A model generated the notes under the pieces. It worked only from the letters and a program-made list of their open reading frames with translations, did not search any database and had not been told where the DNA came from. Positions 21,398 through 54,322 of a stretch of DNA of 64,000 bases are shown here, piece by piece. The number at the start of each line of letters is the position of its first letter. Within the stretch, counting starts at the first letter, position 1. Where the stretch lies: the NCBI GenBank assembly GCA_049678185.1, contig JBAUDS010000369.1, positions 354 through 64,353 of the forward strand, given 5' to 3'. The translations under genes and the position numbers were made by a program. The DNA is from Thermoanaerobaculia bacterium. GTDB taxonomy: Bacteria; Acidobacteriota; Thermoanaerobaculia; Multivoradales; JAHEKO01.

Positions 21398-22240
21398 GTG
21401 ACGACACCTCCCGTGACGATGACCTATGAGGAGTTCCAGCTCCTCAACGAGTTCATCTCCGACCTCATCGGGGTCAGCTTCCCCGCGGAGAGGGGCCGTT
21501 TGCTCGAATCCCGTCTGCGGCCCCGTGTCCAAGCGCTGCATCTGCCCCGGTTCATGGACTACTACTTTGTGCTCCAGTACGACATCGATAGCGAGGCCGA
21601 GCACCTCATGCACGCCGTCACCAACAATGAGACCTACTTTTTTCGCGAGACCCGCCAGTTCGAGGCTCTGTTCGATGAAGTGATCGGAGACCTCAAGGCA
21701 GAGGCCGTGACGCCAGGAACCATCCGGCTCCTCTGCGCCGGCTGCTCCTCGGGAGAAGAGCCCTACACCATCCGCATGTTCGGCGAGGAGAACCCCAACC
21801 CCGACGGCGAGTCGATGCTGCAAATCGACGCCATCGACATCGACCTGGAGCGCCTCGAGGCCGGCAGGACGGCGGAGTACGGGCCCAATTCCCTGCGCAG
21901 CACCAGCGAGACCCAGATCCAGAGCTACTTCAGCCGCAGCGGCAGCAATCGATTCAAACTCCTGCCGCATCTGCGGGTAGGAGTTCGCTTCTCCTACGGC
22001 AACATTCTGGATCTCGACTCCTATCCCAGCCTGGTCTCCTACGACGCGGTCTTCTGCAGGAATGTCTTGATCTACTTTTCGGAGGCGGCCCTCCACCGCG
22101 CCCTCGACAGCTTCGCCCGCGCCCTGCGCCCGGGAGGCCTACTTTTCCTGGGCCACTCCGAGTCGATCATCGGCGTCACACCGCAATTCGAGCCAGTCAG
22201 ACTCAGGAAGTGCATCGTCTACCGAAAGACCGGCGAGTGA
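21398..22240 (+). CDS. cheR: Chemotaxis protein methyltransferase CheR.
   Basis: N-terminal CheR helical domain plus SAM-dependent MTase (ETYFFRE...IRLLCAGCSSGEEPYTI...VFCRNVLIYFS). GTG start. Confidence 0.9.
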   Translation: MTTPPVTMTYEEFQLLNEFISDLIGVSFPAERGRLLESRLRPRVQALHLPRFMDYYFVLQYDIDSEAEHLMHAVTNNETYFFRETRQFEALFDEVIGDLKAEAVTPGTIRLLCAGCSSGEEPYTIRMFGEENPNPDGESMLQIDAIDIDLERLEAGRTAEYGPNSLRSTSETQIQSYFSRSGSNRFKLLPHLRVGVRFSYGNILDLDSYPSLVSYDAVFCRNVLIYFSEAALHRALDSFARALRPGGLLFLGHSESIIGVTPQFEPVRLRKCIVYRKTGE

Positions 22241-23313
22241 AGAAGATCCGCGTCGCCGTTGTGGACGACTCCTCCTTCATGCGCAAGGCGGTGGTGCGCA
22301 TGCTGGCGCCGGAGCCGCGCATCGTGGTCGTGGGTACCGCGGCCTCGGGTGAGGAGCTGCTGACACAGCTCGATACCTGGCAGCCCGATGTCGTCACCCT
22401 CGATCTCTTCATGCCCGGGATGGGTGGTCTGCGGACCCTCGATCGCATCATGGAGCGCAAACCGCTGCCGGTGATTCTCCTGTCGAGCCATTCGAGAGAG
22501 CGGGCGCCGCTGACCATCGAAGCACTGCACCGCGGCGCGGTCGACTTCATCGACAAGCAGCGCTACTCACTGGTGGATTTTCAAGCCCTGGGCAGGGTCC
22601 TGATCGACAAGATACTCCTGGTCACCGGGGCGCATGTCCATCCCCCGGACAGAGGCGCACACACAGGCGCACCAGAGGAGCACACGGGACCCGAAAGGCG
22701 GGCGCATCCCCGCGTGAGAAGCCCGCAGGCCACCCGAGCCCCTGCCTACGACCTCCTGCTGATGGGAGCCTCCACCGGCGGACCGGTGGCGATCCGCGAG
22801 ATCCTGGAGGACCTGGGTACCGATCTGCGGGTACCGGCAGTGGTGGTTCAGCACATGCCCAAAGGTTTTACCAGGGCTTTTGCCGAGCGGCTCAACAGCC
22901 AGCTACCGGTGCCGGTGCTCGAGGTCCTGGGCAGAGAGCCCCTGCTGCCTTCGACGATCTACATAGCACCTGCCGAGCGCCACCTGGTGATCCGCGGACG
23001 CCCTGGAGAGTTGACCGTCGTCGCCACCAGCGATCCCGACGACGTCACCCACCGACCCTCGGTCGATGTCCTCTTCTCCTCCGCAGCCAGCATCCCCGAG
23101 CTGCGGGTTGTCGGCCTGCTGCTCACCGGGATGGGGAGCGACGGCGCCAAGGGGATGAAGGAACTGGCCGGCGCCGGCGCCTTCACCCTGGCCCAAGACG
23201 CCGATACCTCGATTGTCTACGGCATGCCACGGGCCGCCGCCGAGCTCGGGGCCGCCCACGAGATCCTGCCGCTCGGCCAGATCGCCGCCCGGCTAAGAGA
23301 TTTAATTGGGTGA
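22236..23313 (+). CDS. cheB: Protein-glutamate methylesterase CheB (receiver domain plus CheB methylesterase).
   Basis: Receiver (KKIRVAVVDDSSFMR...VVTLDLFMPGMGG) plus methylesterase (LLLMGASTGGPVAIREIL...VVVQHMPKGFTRAFAERLN...GMGSDGAKGMKEL). A GTG at 22236 overlaps the cheR TGA (GTGA). An in-frame ATG at 22210 is an alternative start. Confidence 0.85.
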
Positions 23314-23402
23314 CAGGCTACTCAATTCAACGATTTGGACTGTAGGTCCGAGCTCGGGCAGTTGCAGCCAGTCCAAATCGTTGAATTGAGTAGCCTGTCA
23401 CC
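23309..23402. repeat. Perfect 34-bp inverted repeat separated by a 26-nt spacer (94 bp in total).
   Basis: Arm 1 is 23309-23342 (GGTGACAGGCTACTCAATTCAACGATTTGGACTG). Arm 2 is 23369-23402 and is its exact reverse complement. The spacer contains the small palindrome CCGAGCTCGG. The arms are AT-richer than their surroundings. Arm 1 overlaps the cheB stop codon. Confidence 0.85.
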
Positions 23403-23412
23403 GATCGGGCTG

Positions 23413-23976
23413 TCACCCTTCGGGCATCTCCGGCTCGAGGTCTATTCCCAAGCCGTCGGCCAGCCGGTTGTAATAGGCAAACATTCCCGTGACCTGGACG
23501 ATGTCGTGGATGGCGTGGTCGTCGAAACCCTGGTCGCGGATTGGCTGGAGATCCTGCTCCACCACCTGGCCGGGTGTCAGGGTGAGCTTGGCCACAAACT
23601 CGAGCATCGCCCGGTCGGCCGGGGCGAGGTCGGCTTGGGTGTAGTCGGTCTTGATCGCCGCCACCAGCGCCTCGGCCCCCGCCTGTCCCTGGACCTCTGC
23701 CCGGAGGTCCTCGCCATGGGCCTCGGCTCAGTAGTGACAGTCGTTGACCGCCGAGACCGTGGTGGCGATCATCTCCCGCTGTGCCCGGGTCAGCCCGCTC
23801 TCCAGTGAGTGCATGATCTCGATATAGGTCTGGGTCGACGAGCGCAGCACCTTGGGTCGCAGGCTCTGGATGCTGATGATGTTGTAGACCTTCCCCGCCC
23901 GCTTGACCGCGGCGTTGTAAAGCTGCTTCAACAGCCCCTCGGCCTCCCCCGGGGGAATCACCCTGATCCAAGCCAT
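23413..23976 (-). CDS. AhpD-like / carboxymuconolactone decarboxylase family protein (187 aa) with an in-frame TGA at the second Cys of the CxxCxxxH motif. Candidate selenoprotein (alternatively a pseudogene).
   Basis: Two ORFs in the same frame (23728-23976 and 23413-23664) are split by a single TGA at 23728-23730. The translation reads ...VSAVNDCHY[TGA]AEAHGEDLRAEVQGQ...AAIKTDYTQADLAPADRAMLEFVAKLT. The motif CHY-U-AEAH matches the AhpD CxxCxxxH active site. The frame stays open and conserved-looking for 83 codons after the TGA. A 7-bp perfect hairpin lies 17 nt downstream of the UGA. Confidence 0.5.
23691..23710 (-). promoter_or_regulatory. Candidate bacterial SECIS-like hairpin (GGACCUC-CGGGCA-GAGGUCC) 17 nt 3' of the in-frame UGA.
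   Basis: Seen directly: a 7-bp perfect stem with a 6-nt G-rich loop in the mRNA sense. Its spacing from the UGA is within the range reported for bacterial SECIS elements. No covariance model was run. Confidence 0.35.
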
Positions 23977-24051
23977 GGTGCTCGCATCGGACTACAGACC
24001 TGCGAGGATGTCAAGCACCGACCACGAGCCTTGCCCCGGAGGACCACATCG

Positions 24052-24276
24052 TCAGGTGGGAAGTACCGGCTTGTTGCGGCGGCCCTGCGCCGCGAAGTAG
24101 ACTCCGCTGCCAACAAGAGTTTGAAGGATCCCGATCGGAATCGTTGCGAGCAGGAAGGCTCGCTTGTAGCTCTCGAGCGTGACACCTTTCGCCATAGAAA
24201 GTGACACGGGCTCCCGATTCGGAAAGTCGACATACACTTCGTCCTCCACCGTAGTGCTAAACCGCACCCGCAACAT
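24052..24276 (-). CDS. Hypothetical small protein (74 aa) with a C-terminal TM segment.
   Basis: ORF divergent from the MBL hydrolase gene. Hydrophobic C-terminus (AFLLATIPIGILQTLVGSGVYFAAQG). Plausible codon usage. No domain recognised. Confidence 0.3.
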   Translation of the reverse strand: MLRVRFSTTVEDEVYVDFPNREPVSLSMAKGVTLESYKRAFLLATIPIGILQTLVGSGVYFAAQGRRNKPVLPT

Positions 24277-24288
24277 TGGAGAATTTCC

Positions 24289-25584
24289 ATGAGATCCACC
24301 AACAGGTTCCTGTCAGGAGTAGCTCTGTTCGTCGCCGTAACGATGCTCTATCTATGGGGGTACTCCGACGGACGCGAGGGCAGATCGCCCGGTCTCATGG
24401 GAGTGCTGCGCGCGGCTCCCACCGAGGCGACAAACGACTGGTCGCCCACCAAGCCCTATCCGTCACATGAGGTCTACTACCCCGGCACCGAGGAGCTGGG
24501 ACCGGACGAGATGCGCGTCATTACGTGCGGCTCCGGTATGCCGATGCCGCGCCTCAAACAGGCTGCCGCCTGCATCCTGGTGGAGCTGGGCAACGGGGAC
24601 AAGTTCATCTTCGATATGGGAACCGGCTCCATGGAGAGACTCTACGCACTCGGCATTCCGCTGGACTTCATAGACAAGGTCTTCCTCACGCACCTTCATG
24701 CGGATCATATGGGCGACCTGCCGGCGTTCTTTATCTATGGCCCACAGAACAACCGCTCGGTGCCTCTGCGGGTTTGGGGGCCCGGAGGAGGAGGCACGCG
24801 TCCGGAGTGGGGAACCAAAGCGGCAATGGACCACATGCTGGAGATGTGGGCATGGATGACCGGCACTCTGGTCGGCACCATCGACACACGCTCCTTCGGC
24901 CTCGAAGTCACGGAATACGACTGGTCGGCAGTCAATGGGGTCATCTACGAGGAGAACGGCGTGGTCATCAGAAGTATCCCTGCCGTCCACTTCGAGCAGT
25001 CGGCCAGCTTCATCATGGAATGGAACGGCCTCGAGCTGGCGTTCTCCGGGGACACACTCCCCAACAACTGGTGGATCGAGCACACCCAGGGCGTCGACCT
25101 CTCGATCCACGAATCCATCTTCATGCCCGACATGGCGATGAAGAAGTGGAAGTTCTCGGGTGAGGAAGCCTTGAACGCCATGACGAAGATCCATGCCAAC
25201 CCCGCCTTCTTCGCCAAGGCGATGGCCATGACGCGGCCGAGGCACGCCGTCGCCTACCACTTCCAAAACGACTTCGACACGCTCCCCGCCACCATCAGGA
25301 CCGTCGAGCAGATCTACGACGGCCCGGTGGATTATGCGCAAGACCTGATGGTGTGGAACGTCACCAAGGAAGGTGTGCGTACACGGATGGCCGTCCCCAA
25401 CCCGGAGTACTACCCGACACCTCCGCTTCAAGAGAAGCAAATCACAGTGGGCGGCGATAGTTACCAGACCCCCGAGTGGGTGCTCGATGGATTCCCGGAT
25501 GAGATGGATGCGGTCGCGAAGCAGATCTACGCGGACTTCAACAAAGAGCACGGAACAAAATTCGAGTTCAAGTTGAAGCCCTGA
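24289..25584 (+). CDS. MBL-fold metallo-hydrolase (RNase Z / arylsulfatase-like beta-lactamase superfamily).
   Basis: HxHxDH motif (THLHADHMGDL), plus downstream His/Asp ligands (AVHFEQ, SGDT). N-terminal hydrophobic segment (signal/TM). GC content and codon usage are visibly lower and more AT-ending than in neighbouring genes. Confidence 0.8.
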   Translation: MRSTNRFLSGVALFVAVTMLYLWGYSDGREGRSPGLMGVLRAAPTEATNDWSPTKPYPSHEVYYPGTEELGPDEMRVITCGSGMPMPRLKQAAACILVELGNGDKFIFDMGTGSMERLYALGIPLDFIDKVFLTHLHADHMGDLPAFFIYGPQNNRSVPLRVWGPGGGGTRPEWGTKAAMDHMLEMWAWMTGTLVGTIDTRSFGLEVTEYDWSAVNGVIYEENGVVIRSIPAVHFEQSASFIMEWNGLELAFSGDTLPNNWWIEHTQGVDLSIHESIFMPDMAMKKWKFSGEEALNAMTKIHANPAFFAKAMAMTRPRHAVAYHFQNDFDTLPATIRTVEQIYDGPVDYAQDLMVWNVTKEGVRTRMAVPNPEYYPTPPLQEKQITVGGDSYQTPEWVLDGFPDEMDAVAKQIYADFNKEHGTKFEFKLKP

Positions 25585-51841: not shown

Positions 51842-53070
51842 GATTGTGGTCGACCCTCGGTGCTCTTTTGCTTGCCAGCGCCGTGCCGGCGGCCGCGGAG
51901 AGGGCCGCGCTCGAACCCGTCCCCCTGCCCGCCGCCGGCGCGGCCGAGAGCTTTGTCTACCAGGAGATCCGGGATGCGCATGAGGCGGTGACGGCTCTGG
52001 CACAGAGGGAGACGGCCGAGCCGATGGTGGTGGCCCAGGGATTTGCCGAGCTGGGACAGCTCTACGCCGCCTACGAGTTGTGGGATCCGGCCGGATCGAG
52101 TCTCCGCAACGCCACCACCCTGGCGAGCGGAGCGGCCGGTTGGTGGTATCTGCTCGGCTATGTCGAGCAGAGGCGCGGAGGTCTGCAGGAGGCCGCGTCG
52201 GCTTTCGAGCAGGCCTCGCGGCTCGACCCGGAGAACGCAGCCATCTGGCTCCGTCTGGGCGAGACGGAGCTGCTGATGGGTGCGGATGAGGCTGCCACGA
52301 CCGCTTTCTCCCGCGCCCTCGCCAGTCCCGCGCATGCCGCCGCGGCCCACTTCGGCCTGGGCCGTCTGGCAGTGCGCGCCGGTGATACCGCCACCGCCGT
52401 CGAACAGCTGGTCCAGGCGCTCGACCTCCAACCCACGGCCACTCAGATCCACTACCCTCTGGCCCAGATCTATCGCCGTCAGAACCGGCTGGAGCTGGCG
52501 CAGAGCCACCTCGAGCTTCAGGGCACGGGACAGGTGTTATTCGAAGATCCGTGGGTCGAGGATCTTTCACGCCGGGGTCTCGGCGCCGCGGCCCAGCATC
52601 TGCGGGGAGACCGTGCGGCCATCGACGGCCGTTTCTCCGAGGCCGTCGCGGCCTATCGGGAGGCGGTGGCCGCCGATCCGCAGAGCATCTTCTACCGGCG
52701 CTCGCTGGGGCTGGCCCTTTTCCAGACCGGCGACATCGAGGGCGCTGCGCGCGAGCTCGAGACCGCACTCACCCTCTCCCCCGGGCTATCGCCGGCGCAG
52801 CGCGATTATTGGGGTGCCGAGATCCGGTACAACCTGGCCGGGCTCGCGGTCTACCGGGGTGACCTCGAGCGCGCGATCGAGCTCCACCGGTCGGTGATCG
52901 CTCTCGATCCCGGGCACGCCGGTGCGCACCTCTATCTGGGAGATCTCTTGCTCAAGAGTGGAAACAGGGAGGAGGCGGTGGTCAATCTGCGGCGGGCGGT
53001 GGAGCTCGACCCCGACGATCCCCGAGCCCGGCAGCTGCTCGAGCGCGCCCTGCCCCAGGTCGATCGCTAG
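51838..53070 (+). CDS. TPR-repeat protein with a signal peptide.
   Basis: Multiple TPR units (AWLRLGETELLMG..., HFGLGRLAVRAGDTATAVEQLVQALDLQP, YPLAQIYRRQNRLELA..., AHLYLGDLLLKSGNREEAVVNLRRAVELDP). Its ATG overlaps the CRTAC1 stop (ATGA). Confidence 0.75.
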   Translation: MRLWSTLGALLLASAVPAAAERAALEPVPLPAAGAAESFVYQEIRDAHEAVTALAQRETAEPMVVAQGFAELGQLYAAYELWDPAGSSLRNATTLASGAAGWWYLLGYVEQRRGGLQEAASAFEQASRLDPENAAIWLRLGETELLMGADEAATTAFSRALASPAHAAAAHFGLGRLAVRAGDTATAVEQLVQALDLQPTATQIHYPLAQIYRRQNRLELAQSHLELQGTGQVLFEDPWVEDLSRRGLGAAAQHLRGDRAAIDGRFSEAVAAYREAVAADPQSIFYRRSLGLALFQTGDIEGAARELETALTLSPGLSPAQRDYWGAEIRYNLAGLAVYRGDLERAIELHRSVIALDPGHAGAHLYLGDLLLKSGNREEAVVNLRRAVELDPDDPRARQLLERALPQVDR

Positions 53071-53114
53071 GAGCCCGTAACGCAACTGCGCGGGTTACTC
53101 GGACGGGCTCCTAG
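53067..53114. terminator. Bidirectional terminator-like palindrome between convergent operons (CTAGGAGCCCGT ... ACGGGCTCCTAG).
   Basis: A 12-bp perfect inverted repeat with a 24-nt structured loop. The TAG stop codons of both convergent genes (TPR at 53068-70, anti-sigma at 53111-13) sit inside the CTAG ends of the arms. No T-tract follows. Confidence 0.45.
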
Positions 53115-54322
53115 CGGACGAGATCGGCGAGTGAGCGCAGCGAATCGCTGCTGACCTCACCCCAGAGAATGAGCAGGTAACCCTCGCTATCGCGCCAGCG
53201 ATAGGACTTCAGGCCGGAAGGCTGGACGACCAGAGTAGGCTCGGCCGGCACCGTGGCCCTGTCACCGGGCGATAACAGCTGCTGGAGGAGCACGATCTCG
53301 TGGCCGGCCGCATCGAGGTAGACCATCTTGACGACCGGGAGATGGTCGAGACCGCCCTCTACTCCACTCCCCGGCACCACCTCCACCCGCCGAAGATCGA
53401 GATCGGGGAGCGTCCGCAATGGGCCGCCCAGCCGGCTCGCCGCATCATCCGGATCGGTGGCGATGGAGATTACAAAATCCGCTGCTGGCGGGGTGGGCTC
53501 AGGCGCCGGCGGCGGCTGTGCAGCCCGCATCTTGGCCCTTGCGGGAGCCGCGCTCTCGGGTCGGACCTCCTCGAGCTGCGACCGCAGCTCGGCTCCTTCC
53601 GCACCCGCCTCGAGCTCGGCCAGCAGGCGGCTCTCCTCCTCGGCCGGCACGATTTCTCCCGAGCCCTTCTGGTCGAGCTCGGTATCGGCTCTCGACCCGT
53701 CTGGGACATCCACCTCGGTTTCGGCAGCGACGGCCGCAATACCCTCCGCGCTTGTGGTCGCGGCCGGCTCCGGTTTCGACTGGAACGCCATTTCCGGTGC
53801 TTCGTCCTCCCCGGCCCTGCCGAGCTGCTCCTCGACCGCCAGAGGTTTGTCTTCGGCCGGCTTCTCCAATTCGCTGCCAAGATTCCCCTCGGCAATAGAA
53901 TCTCGATCCTCTTTCTTCTCCGCCAGATCGACGGACGCGACAGGCGACTGGGCTGGAGCCGCCATCTCGAAGGCGGCCCTGGGCGCACTCTTCCAGACGT
54001 TGCCCGACAACCAACCGATGCTAAAGGCCAAGAACACCGACGCTGCCCACGCCAGACCCGGCCGCAGCCAGGATCGGCGCTCCGGGATGGTCAATCTCTC
54101 CGCGGCCCGTTCCTCGAGCTCGCGCCAGGGGGGTGGCTGGACGGGGCCCGGCTCGAGCTTGGCTAGCAGCGCCGAGACACTGCGGCTGAGCGTGGTCACC
54201 TCCACCAGCCGCTCACGACACTCAATACAGGTCTCGAGGTGCCGCTCGACCTCCCGGCGCTCCTGCTCTTCGGTCTCGCCGTCGAGATAGGCTTCCAGGG
54301 CTCCCTCGTCAATGTGCGACAT
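53111..54322 (-). CDS. Anti-sigma factor with an N-terminal zf-HC2 (putative zinc-finger) domain, one TM, and an extracytoplasmic C-terminal domain.
   Basis: The N-terminus (MSHIDEGALEAYLDGETEEQERREVERHLETCIECRERL) is the canonical zf-HC2 anti-sigma motif. TM segment (AWAASVFLAFSIGWLSG). The start at 54322 has an AAGGAAG Shine-Dalgarno 8 nt upstream. It overlaps the sigma gene end by 14 nt. Confidence 0.7.
   Translation of the reverse strand: MSHIDEGALEAYLDGETEEQERREVERHLETCIECRERLVEVTTLSRSVSALLAKLEPGPVQPPPWRELEERAAERLTIPERRSWLRPGLAWAASVFLAFSIGWLSGNVWKSAPRAAFEMAAPAQSPVASVDLAEKKEDRDSIAEGNLGSELEKPAEDKPLAVEEQLGRAGEDEAPEMAFQSKPEPAATTSAEGIAAVAAETEVDVPDGSRADTELDQKGSGEIVPAEEESRLLAELEAGAEGAELRSQLEEVRPESAAPARAKMRAAQPPPAPEPTPPAADFVISIATDPDDAASRLGGPLRTLPDLDLRRVEVVPGSGVEGGLDHLPVVKMVYLDAAGHEIVLLQQLLSPGDRATVPAEPTLVVQPSGLKSYRWRDSEGYLLILWGEVSSDSLRSLADLVR

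Follow-up and report, generated by a model that had tools for sequence, protein, structure and literature searches.

A 34-bp perfect hairpin between cheB and an ahpD-like gene in a Thermoanaerobaculia genome, probably a REPIN-like doublet of RAYT element ends

In a 64,000-nt stretch of the genome of a Thermoanaerobaculia bacterium of the phylum Acidobacteriota (GenBank assembly GCA_049678185.1, contig JBAUDS010000369.1), hereafter the window, within which all positions are counted, an unusually long perfect inverted repeat separates two convergent genes. On its left is cheB (22237..23313, + strand), which encodes a 358-aa protein with the Pfam domains Response_reg and CheB_methylest and whose 3' end is fused to the repeat. 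On its right is an ahpD/CMD-like gene (23413..23976, - strand), which has an in-frame TGA at 23728-23730 and its own stop in a probable truncated copy of the repeat. Arm 1 of the repeat (23309..23342, + strand; GGTGACAGGCTACTCAATTCAACGATTTGGACTG) is made of 20 nt of family-conserved core and 14 private nt (AACGATTTGGACTG), arm 2 (23369..23402, - strand) is its exact reverse complement, and the loop of 26 nt (23343..23368) holds the palindrome CCGAGCTCGG at 23348-23357, a small secondary stem. The stop codon of cheB (TGA, 23311..23313, + strand) lies within the GGTGACAG of arm 1. In all these respects, i.e. the perfect arms, the spacer and its palindrome, the convergent flanking genes and the buried cheB stop, a preliminary description of the same DNA was accurate.

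With 100% complementarity over 34 nt and 26 nt between the arms, the hairpin is by far the best inverted repeat of the window, the runner-up being 36 nt long at 75%. None of 100 dinucleotide-shuffled windows yielded a match to the arm, and the complementarity of the arms is far above chance expectation. The arms are also AT-richer than their surroundings, as described earlier: their G+C content is 47% (16/34), and that of the 100-nt segment 23300-23399 is 48%, compared with 60-72% in the adjoining segments. When folded as RNA, a check proposed at the outset, the hairpin reaches -76.5 kcal/mol (z -8.8) on the + strand and -73.8 kcal/mol (z -11.0) on the - strand, and as single-stranded DNA it reaches -43.5 (z -10.8). 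A search of Rfam in E-value mode with 23305-23405 matched no bacterial RNA family. The only matches, at E of about 1e-7, were to the plant/animal microRNA precursors MIR814 and mir-607, whose scores of 49 and 48 bits are below the gathering cut-offs of 90 and 94 bits; we reject this identity, as such generic matches are drawn by any long perfect hairpin. The 211 bases around the hairpin match the window base for base in eight of the ten contigs retrieved, which come from independently assembled metagenome-assembled genomes (MAGs), and the other two contigs end within the hairpin, 25 nt (L105) and 18 nt (L108) past the cheB stop (L-numbers, L001-L124, denote the retrieved loci, about 125 in total). 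The assembly artefact that had been considered possible is excluded, because the region is identical in eight independent assemblies.

Comparison with related lineages indicates that the hairpin is a lineage-specific insertion at the cheB/ahpD junction. In all seven lineages traced from CheB orthologues of 85-92% identity (L110, L112, L113, L116, L117, L118 and L120), the stops of cheB and the ahpD-like gene are 0-5 nt apart and there is no hairpin; the junction in the window has about 90-100 bases more than these seven empty sites. Since all seven have the junction without the hairpin, it was inserted in the lineage of the window. The C-terminus of CheB was retained in the process (..RDLIG, compared with ..RDL[V/I/L]G in orthologues), and the stop codon in the window is TGA where orthologues mostly have TAG or TAA. 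The ahpD-like product now ends in ..MPEG*, as opposed to the ancestral ..MPGRGM*, and the TGA of its gene (23413-23415) lies in a second copy of GGTGACAG at 23410-23417. This copy is probably what remains of a truncated third arm (23410..23423, - strand; GAAG+GGTGACAG), placed 7 nt outside arm 2. Aligned alone to the profile of the arm family described below, the truncated arm is not significant (E 35). The third-arm reading is drawn from the local rarity of the 8-mer, which occurs five other times in the window, together with the enrichment of extra copies across the family: GTGACAG recurs within 45 nt outside 14 of 164 arms, tenfold above the 1.4 expected. The same layout, an arm cut after GGTGACAG and followed after 6-7 nt by a full arm, is also found in L006, L048 and L070. 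Thus, both gene ends were remodelled: cheB, and probably the ahpD-like gene as well, now ends at a TGA within a GGTGACAG motif. One of the empty sites, that of L112 (3956-3975), natively reads GGGTGACAGTCAC, which contains the 8-mer GGTGACAG; this junction, a single case, hints at a preference for GGTGACAG-like targets.

The preliminary description did not foresee that the repeat is confined to the outer part of the 34-bp arm. This part, 20-27 nt per arm with the sequence (GAAAWKC)GGTGACAGGCTACTCAWTTC, is conserved and recurs at about 100 loci of Acidobacteriota MAGs and metagenomes, nearly always in inverted pairs. The remaining 14 bp of the stem and the loop belong to the window copy alone, as neither the 14-mer AACGATTTGGACTG nor the loop has a further occurrence in the window or in the roughly 125 retrieved loci. 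With a profile of 149 unique arms of the family, the left repeat unit is matched at 23304-23328 (E 2.4e-7) and the right one at 23404-23383 (E 1.5e-7), and detects no further arm in the window. The left unit (23303..23328, + strand) is composed of the outer flank TAATTG and the core GGTGACAGGCTACTCAATTC and shares bases with the final codons of cheB and its stop; the family-conserved right unit occupies 23383..23404 on the - strand. The outer flank of the left arm fits the family unit, whereas that of the right arm does not. Different probes of the arm agree on a dispersed repeat: TAATTGGGTGACAGGCTACTCAATTC is matched at 96% in L011, L043, L051 and L071 (blastn-short), the exact outer 20-mer GGTGACAGGCTACTCAATTC occurs at eight loci of Acidobacteriota MAGs, six of them in the single fragmentary MAG JAOTZA01, and the 19-mer GGTGACAGGCTACTCAWTT is found in 91 metagenome stretches. 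The exact 20-mer has a single site on a 1.24-Mb contig, and viral contigs searched with the 19-mer gave no match. The 16-nt core has 217 matches over the related loci, mostly as a + copy followed 35-90 nt on by a - copy.

In a sequence logo of 161 unique arms, conservation is confined to positions -6 to +20, reading G-A-A-A-W-K-C-GGTGACAGGCTACTCA-W-T-T-C, with nothing conserved further in or out. Positions -3 and 17 covary (A:T 91, T:A 22, T:T 2), and a single unit folds only to a stem of 5-6 bp (GAAATG/CATTTC). GTAG lies inside the repeat unit, and GGTG or GTCG takes its place in sister subfamilies. The repeats are dispersed as singles, as +/- pairs and as tandem or truncated arms over the approximately 100 loci. 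Among them are 46 unique short doublets of 51-152 nt (median 75), whose interiors are unrelated even inside one MAG, and core-to-core spacing ranges from 19 to 69 nt among the first nine family members. The window copy has the longest perfect stem of all doublets (34 bp, followed by 29, 27 and 26 bp), and about one-third of doublets have stems that run 4-14 bp beyond the conserved core, so that the window copy stands at the top of the family range of stem lengths and not outside it. In 29 of the 46 doublets a reading frame of at least 120 codons ends within -60 to +25 nt of an arm, compared with 22% at random positions, which agrees with the known preference of repetitive extragenic palindromes (REPs) for the 3' ends of genes (PMC3733652). 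Fourteen long open frames in other loci end at the TGA of an arm; we do not claim these as donated stops, as many long frames are spurious in high-G+C DNA, and we claim stop donation for cheB alone because orthologues confirm its frame. Some loci have clusters of tandem arms in the same orientation (L001 228-338, L049 3735-4540, L070 3955-4568, L079 6761-6877 and L057 2243-2393), with units of 14 to about 37 nt cut at varying points; these clusters resemble those of bacterial interspersed mosaic elements (BIMEs) and of REPINs, which are pairs of inverted REPs.

What connects this repeat to mobility is a transposase gene that it brackets elsewhere. In L024 (782 bp), L081 (735 bp) and L096 (729 bp), the inverted arms of this repeat enclose one open reading frame (ORF) of 219-221 aa whose stop is the TGA of the 3' arm; with a length of at least 20 nt, one arm is found about 35-55 nt upstream of the start and the other extends over the stop. 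The product matches Pfam Y1_Tnp (1.7e-10) and the NCBIfam model NF047646 for REP-associated tyrosine transposases (RAYTs), with 80.9 bits against a cut-off of 80, and aligns with E. coli TnpA-REP (PDB 4ER8) over about 125 residues at 3e-8 and low identity. It has the motifs PNHVHLIV (NHVH), HLWQERF (WQ) and RYVLLNPVRAGL (YVLLNP), with about 80 residues following the Y motif; searched against Pfam up to E 10, it matches Y1_Tnp alone and no C-terminal helix-turn-helix (HTH) domain. There are about 8000 homologues of this RAYT at E <= 1e-20, many on contigs of about 1 kb, and on the long contigs L123 and L124 homologues with 80% and 72% identity are flanked by the co-varying arm variants GGTGACAGGCACCTCA and GGTGACAGGCGACTCA. 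The arms are presumably the recognition sequence of the transposase, and only in this sense does the earlier suggestion of a recombinase binding site hold; a dedicated regulator site is without support. In addition, both arms are retained in internally deleted elements of 559, 481, 399, 346 and 263 bp at different loci. The 263-bp derivative is present in L085 and L098, where the copies are 96% identical and their flanks unrelated, and in L087, L020 and L069 the elements show about 91-97% identity in the columns that they have in common, with differing flanks. Since deleted derivatives recur in different flanks, sequence between two arms can be moved without a working transposase gene. One of the deleted elements, the 481-bp copy at L032 1379-1859, is 99.4% identical to L087 160-640 and combines the left flank of L087 with the right flank of L020 (1268-1826), as would arise from recombination between copies or from chimeric assembly across a repeat. 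Judging by the contig breaks in L105 and L108 and the many RAYT homologues on contigs of about 1 kb, the repeat family appears to fragment metagenome assemblies.

Thus, we consider it very probable that the hairpin is a non-autonomous, REPIN-like doublet, composed of two inverted end sequences of about 27 nt that belong to group-1 RAYT elements ('TIRYT', Y1/HUH) of Acidobacteriota. The outer part of its arm is multi-copy in Acidobacteriota and flanks RAYT genes in related loci, and the orthologous site is empty in seven lineages, all of which bears out the MITE/REP-like mobile repeat (MITE, miniature inverted-repeat transposable element) that was among the first interpretations offered. Target-site duplications, which were to be looked for, are absent: no direct repeat lies beside the window copy or eight MAG copies, and the outer flanks are inverted instead (GAAATGC...GCATTTC). 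Their absence is expected because this would be a Y1/HUH element and not a MITE of the classical DDE type, a class that we reject for want of such duplications. Several observations weigh on the other side. The window has no RAYT gene (tblastn with the RAYT) and only a single doublet, and when the hairpin interior was aligned locally with eight RAYT elements at their 5' and 3' ends, shuffles scored as well (p 0.2-0.8). The six doublets of MAG JAOTZA01, of 51-111 nt, have unrelated interiors, unlike classical REPINs, in which the whole doublet replicates, and the cleavage point proposed below is drawn from four truncated arms only.

Mechanistically, a RAYT encoded elsewhere in the genome would mobilise the doublet in trans as a hairpin of single-stranded DNA. 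By analogy with IS200/IS605 and REPIN-RAYT systems, the enzyme would recognise the arms in single-stranded DNA, cut and rejoin them, and generate no target duplication (PMC3333891, PMC3116915). The point of cleavage or joining may lie directly after GGTGACAG, which is suggested because truncated arms end exactly there. REPIN excision is known to leave the last ~6 bp of one REP (PMC3116915), and arms truncated after GGTGACAG may be parallel footprints. Chance does not account for the 14 private base pairs by which the stem is lengthened to 34 bp, since the odds of each extra matched pair are about 1 in 4; they could derive from an inverted duplication, or one arm could have been corrected against its partner with the hairpin as template. 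In the RNA, a stem-loop would now close both convergent transcripts, where it may hinder 3' exonucleases or read-through and delay termination at the cheB stop buried in the stem. REPs near a stop codon are reportedly able to reduce translation, which Liang et al. are said to have found in 2015. Such effects on RNA would be side effects and not the reason for the existence of the hairpin: there is no U-tract, and any influence on termination, exonucleases or ribosomes would for that reason be a by-product.

Among other explanations, the one with the best, if still limited, prospects concerns the origin of the second arm: a single repeat unit could have landed at the junction, or pre-existed there, and fold-back (snap-back) synthesis or template switching could then have copied the unit and its 14 adjacent bases in inverted orientation. 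It would account for the perfection of the arms over 14 bp beyond their conserved part, which is unique to the window copy, as it would for the third of doublets whose stems run 4-14 bp past the core, and solo, tandem and truncated arms are common in the family. However, the same pattern would follow if selection or gene conversion maintained the pairing of a transposed hairpin, and simple copying does not obviously predict that the left outer flank fits the family unit and the right one does not.

It is rather unlikely that a full-length RAYT element was inserted at the junction and then lost its interior, leaving the doublet as a remnant in the way that MITEs arise from insertion sequences (ISs). 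In its favour, related loci contain RAYT elements with progressively larger internal deletions, 559 to 263 bp in length, and the interiors of short doublets vary from copy to copy within one MAG, as expected of independent deletions. Nevertheless, the interior in the window has no detectable similarity to the ends of the eight RAYT elements, asymmetric gene remnants would not yield 14 extra perfectly paired bases, and the 263-bp derivative at two unrelated loci shows that transposase-less copies are mobile.

Far less probable is that the host selected the hairpin as a bidirectional terminator, or as an mRNA-stabilising structure for cheB and the ahpD-like gene, and that its likeness to a repeat is secondary. 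The hairpin is predicted to be very stable as RNA on both strands and is placed precisely at the junction of two convergent genes that lack any other spacer, and REPs have been credited with effects on termination, mRNA stabilisation and translation (PMC5581495, PMC3733652). Yet seven related lineages do without any hairpin, the conserved part is a transposase-linked repeat and not a structure, and no U-tract follows the stem on either strand: a terminator scan of 22800-24400 found no terminator-like site, and the sequence directly after the stem is GAUCGGG on the + strand and CAAUUAAAUCUC on the - strand. The exceptionally strong bidirectional terminator once envisaged is therefore at most a side effect. 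An intrinsic (Rho-independent) terminator in the ordinary sense was rejected for its lack of a U-tract and the 47% G+C of its arms.

An assembly artefact in the form of a hairpin chimera, or a regulator or site-specific recombinase site unrelated to transposition (attC, dif, invertase), can be dismissed as highly improbable: two contigs do break inside the hairpin, and long perfect palindromes are sometimes artefacts or recombinase sites, but the sequence is identical in the eight assemblies, a fixed operator would not allow the core spacing of 19-69 nt that the first nine family members show, neither an integrase nor a recombinase gene adjoins, the ends do not match attC core sites, and the arms flank a Y1 transposase in other loci. 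For integron attC sites in particular, the ends GGTGACAGG and CCTGTCACC were compared with the R''/R' cores (RYYYAAC / GTTRRRY), and there are one or few elements per locus, without arrays of ORFs and sites and without a neighbouring integrase.

Which known system does the doublet belong to? The best fit is with the terminal inverted repeats (TIRs) of TIRYTs or TIRtrons (Di Nocera et al. 2013), which correspond to subclass 2.1 of TnpA-REP (Quentin et al. 2018) and to group 1 of the RAYTs (Bertels et al. 2017). In a TIRYT, a RAYT-like gene stands between long TIRs that have GGGGWSAS in common; one well-delimited group is specific to Acidobacteria, and the TIR repeats are found singly, as dimers and in clusters (PMC3733652). 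Subclass 2.1 is marked by the motifs NHVH, W[EQ] and Y[IV]xLNP (PMC6006769), and group 1 has flanking 16-mers of low abundance and the highest duplication rate among RAYT groups (PMC5581495). Similarly, the arm family has a Y1/HUH gene bracketed by long terminal inverted repeats, not GTAG-tagged hairpin REPs, the motifs NHVH, WQ and YVLLNP, and singles, dimers and clusters at modest copy number. The arm starts with GGTGACAG, which matches GGGG[AT][CG]A[CG] at 7/8 positions, with T in place of G at the third base, a T that is nearly invariant in the 161 unique arms. The transposase of the arm family is 219-221 aa long, compared with about 238 aa including a C-terminal HTH-like extension in subclass 2.1, and a C-terminal HTH domain is undetected in it by Pfam; its group placement is provisional. 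The family also differs in its documented deletion series and trans-mobilised 263-bp derivative, which are not in PMC3733652, PMC6006769 or PMC5581495, and neither its 27-nt unit nor a Thermoanaerobaculia host was found in these papers.

With REPINs (Bertels and Rainey 2011, PMC3116915) the doublet shares two inverted units and a spacer that fold as one long hairpin, an extragenic position, an arm unit that also flanks the RAYT gene (in L024, L081 and L096 and, as co-varying variants, in L123 and L124) and the lack of a target-site duplication, and its asymmetric truncated ends recall excision footprints that keep ~6 bp of one REP. Classical REPINs, however, have tens to hundreds of near-identical copies per genome and a conserved spacer length, whereas the arm family looks low-copy and its copies in one genome do not share length or spacer. 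The arm unit does not look like a GTAG-footed hairpin, having a stem of only 5-6 bp of its own, and the arm-linked RAYT, of which several decaying copies exist, resembles an IS more than a domesticated single-copy gene. The REPs and BIMEs of E. coli, with TnpA-REP (Ton-Hoang et al. 2012, PMC3333891; Messing et al. 2012, PMC3479197), have in common with the arm family a homologous transposase, inverted pairs, variable linkers and a location near the 3' ends of genes, but they are imperfect palindromes of ~35 nt with a 5' GTAG and hundreds of copies, in contrast to an arm family in which GTAG is inside the unit. Like DDE-type MITEs, the doublet is short, non-coding, bounded by terminal inverted repeats, related to an autonomous element through internal deletion and presumably mobilised in trans, but there is no target-site duplication and the parent enzyme is a single-strand transposase of the Y1/HUH type.

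The 34-bp palindrome can accordingly be explained without new biology, as a transposase-linked repeat of a family that annotation pipelines leave unmarked in Acidobacteriota MAGs. With one filled and seven empty orthologous sites, it offers a clean before-and-after case of entry between abutting convergent genes, in which one or more native stop codons gave way to those of the element. Whether group-1 RAYTs are selfish insertion sequences or domesticated genes is a question to which the graded deletions and the 263-bp copy without a transposase, present at two unrelated loci, are relevant, and they hint that group-1 RAYT elements in Acidobacteriota are still mobile. We offer, tentatively and as more doubtful than the doublet reading itself, the idea that these elements may be active IS-like transposons that spawn MITE-like hairpin doublets by internal deletion and inverted duplication of a single arm, with strand cleavage and joining directly after GGTGACAG. 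If so, this RAYT family would represent a living stage midway from IS200/IS605 transposons to REPIN-RAYT systems that are domesticated and single-copy, and its stop-rich arms would let the element settle in zero-length convergent gaps while donating new stops to both genes.

Several features of the window outside the hairpin deserve mention. The start of cheB is most likely the GTG at 22237, which overlaps the stop of cheR (GTGA; 22237-22240), and not the GTG at 22210: the product from 22237 is present as an exact protein in at least 18 contigs of Thermoanaerobaculia MAGs, and a look-up of the product from 22210 in public assemblies gave no match. An orthologue of the ahpD-like gene has a weak match to PF02627 (CMD) in its N-terminal half. 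The frame of the ahpD-like gene is broken by a TGA in the context N-D-C-H-Y-TGA-x-E-A-H (a CxxU redox motif), and a GGACCUC-N6-GAGGUCC hairpin follows about 20 nt past this TGA (about 23693-23712). The TGA, the downstream frame and this hairpin are all conserved in the seven orthologous loci (7/7). The gene probably encodes a selenoprotein, with TGA read as selenocysteine, which gene callers split into ORFs of 82 aa and 83-86 aa. Elsewhere in the window, an imperfect inverted-repeat cluster at 52837-53138 (36 nt at 75%, 24 nt at 75% and 18 nt at 89%) is G+C-rich and unrelated to the arm family. Finally, the 431-aa protein encoded at 24289-25584 (+ strand) has a metallo-beta-lactamase fold and a weak match to Pfam Anti-Pycsar_Apyc1 (25.3 bits, cut-off 50); it is probably a plain hydrolase of this fold, and L110 has two tandem paralogues of it at the corresponding place.

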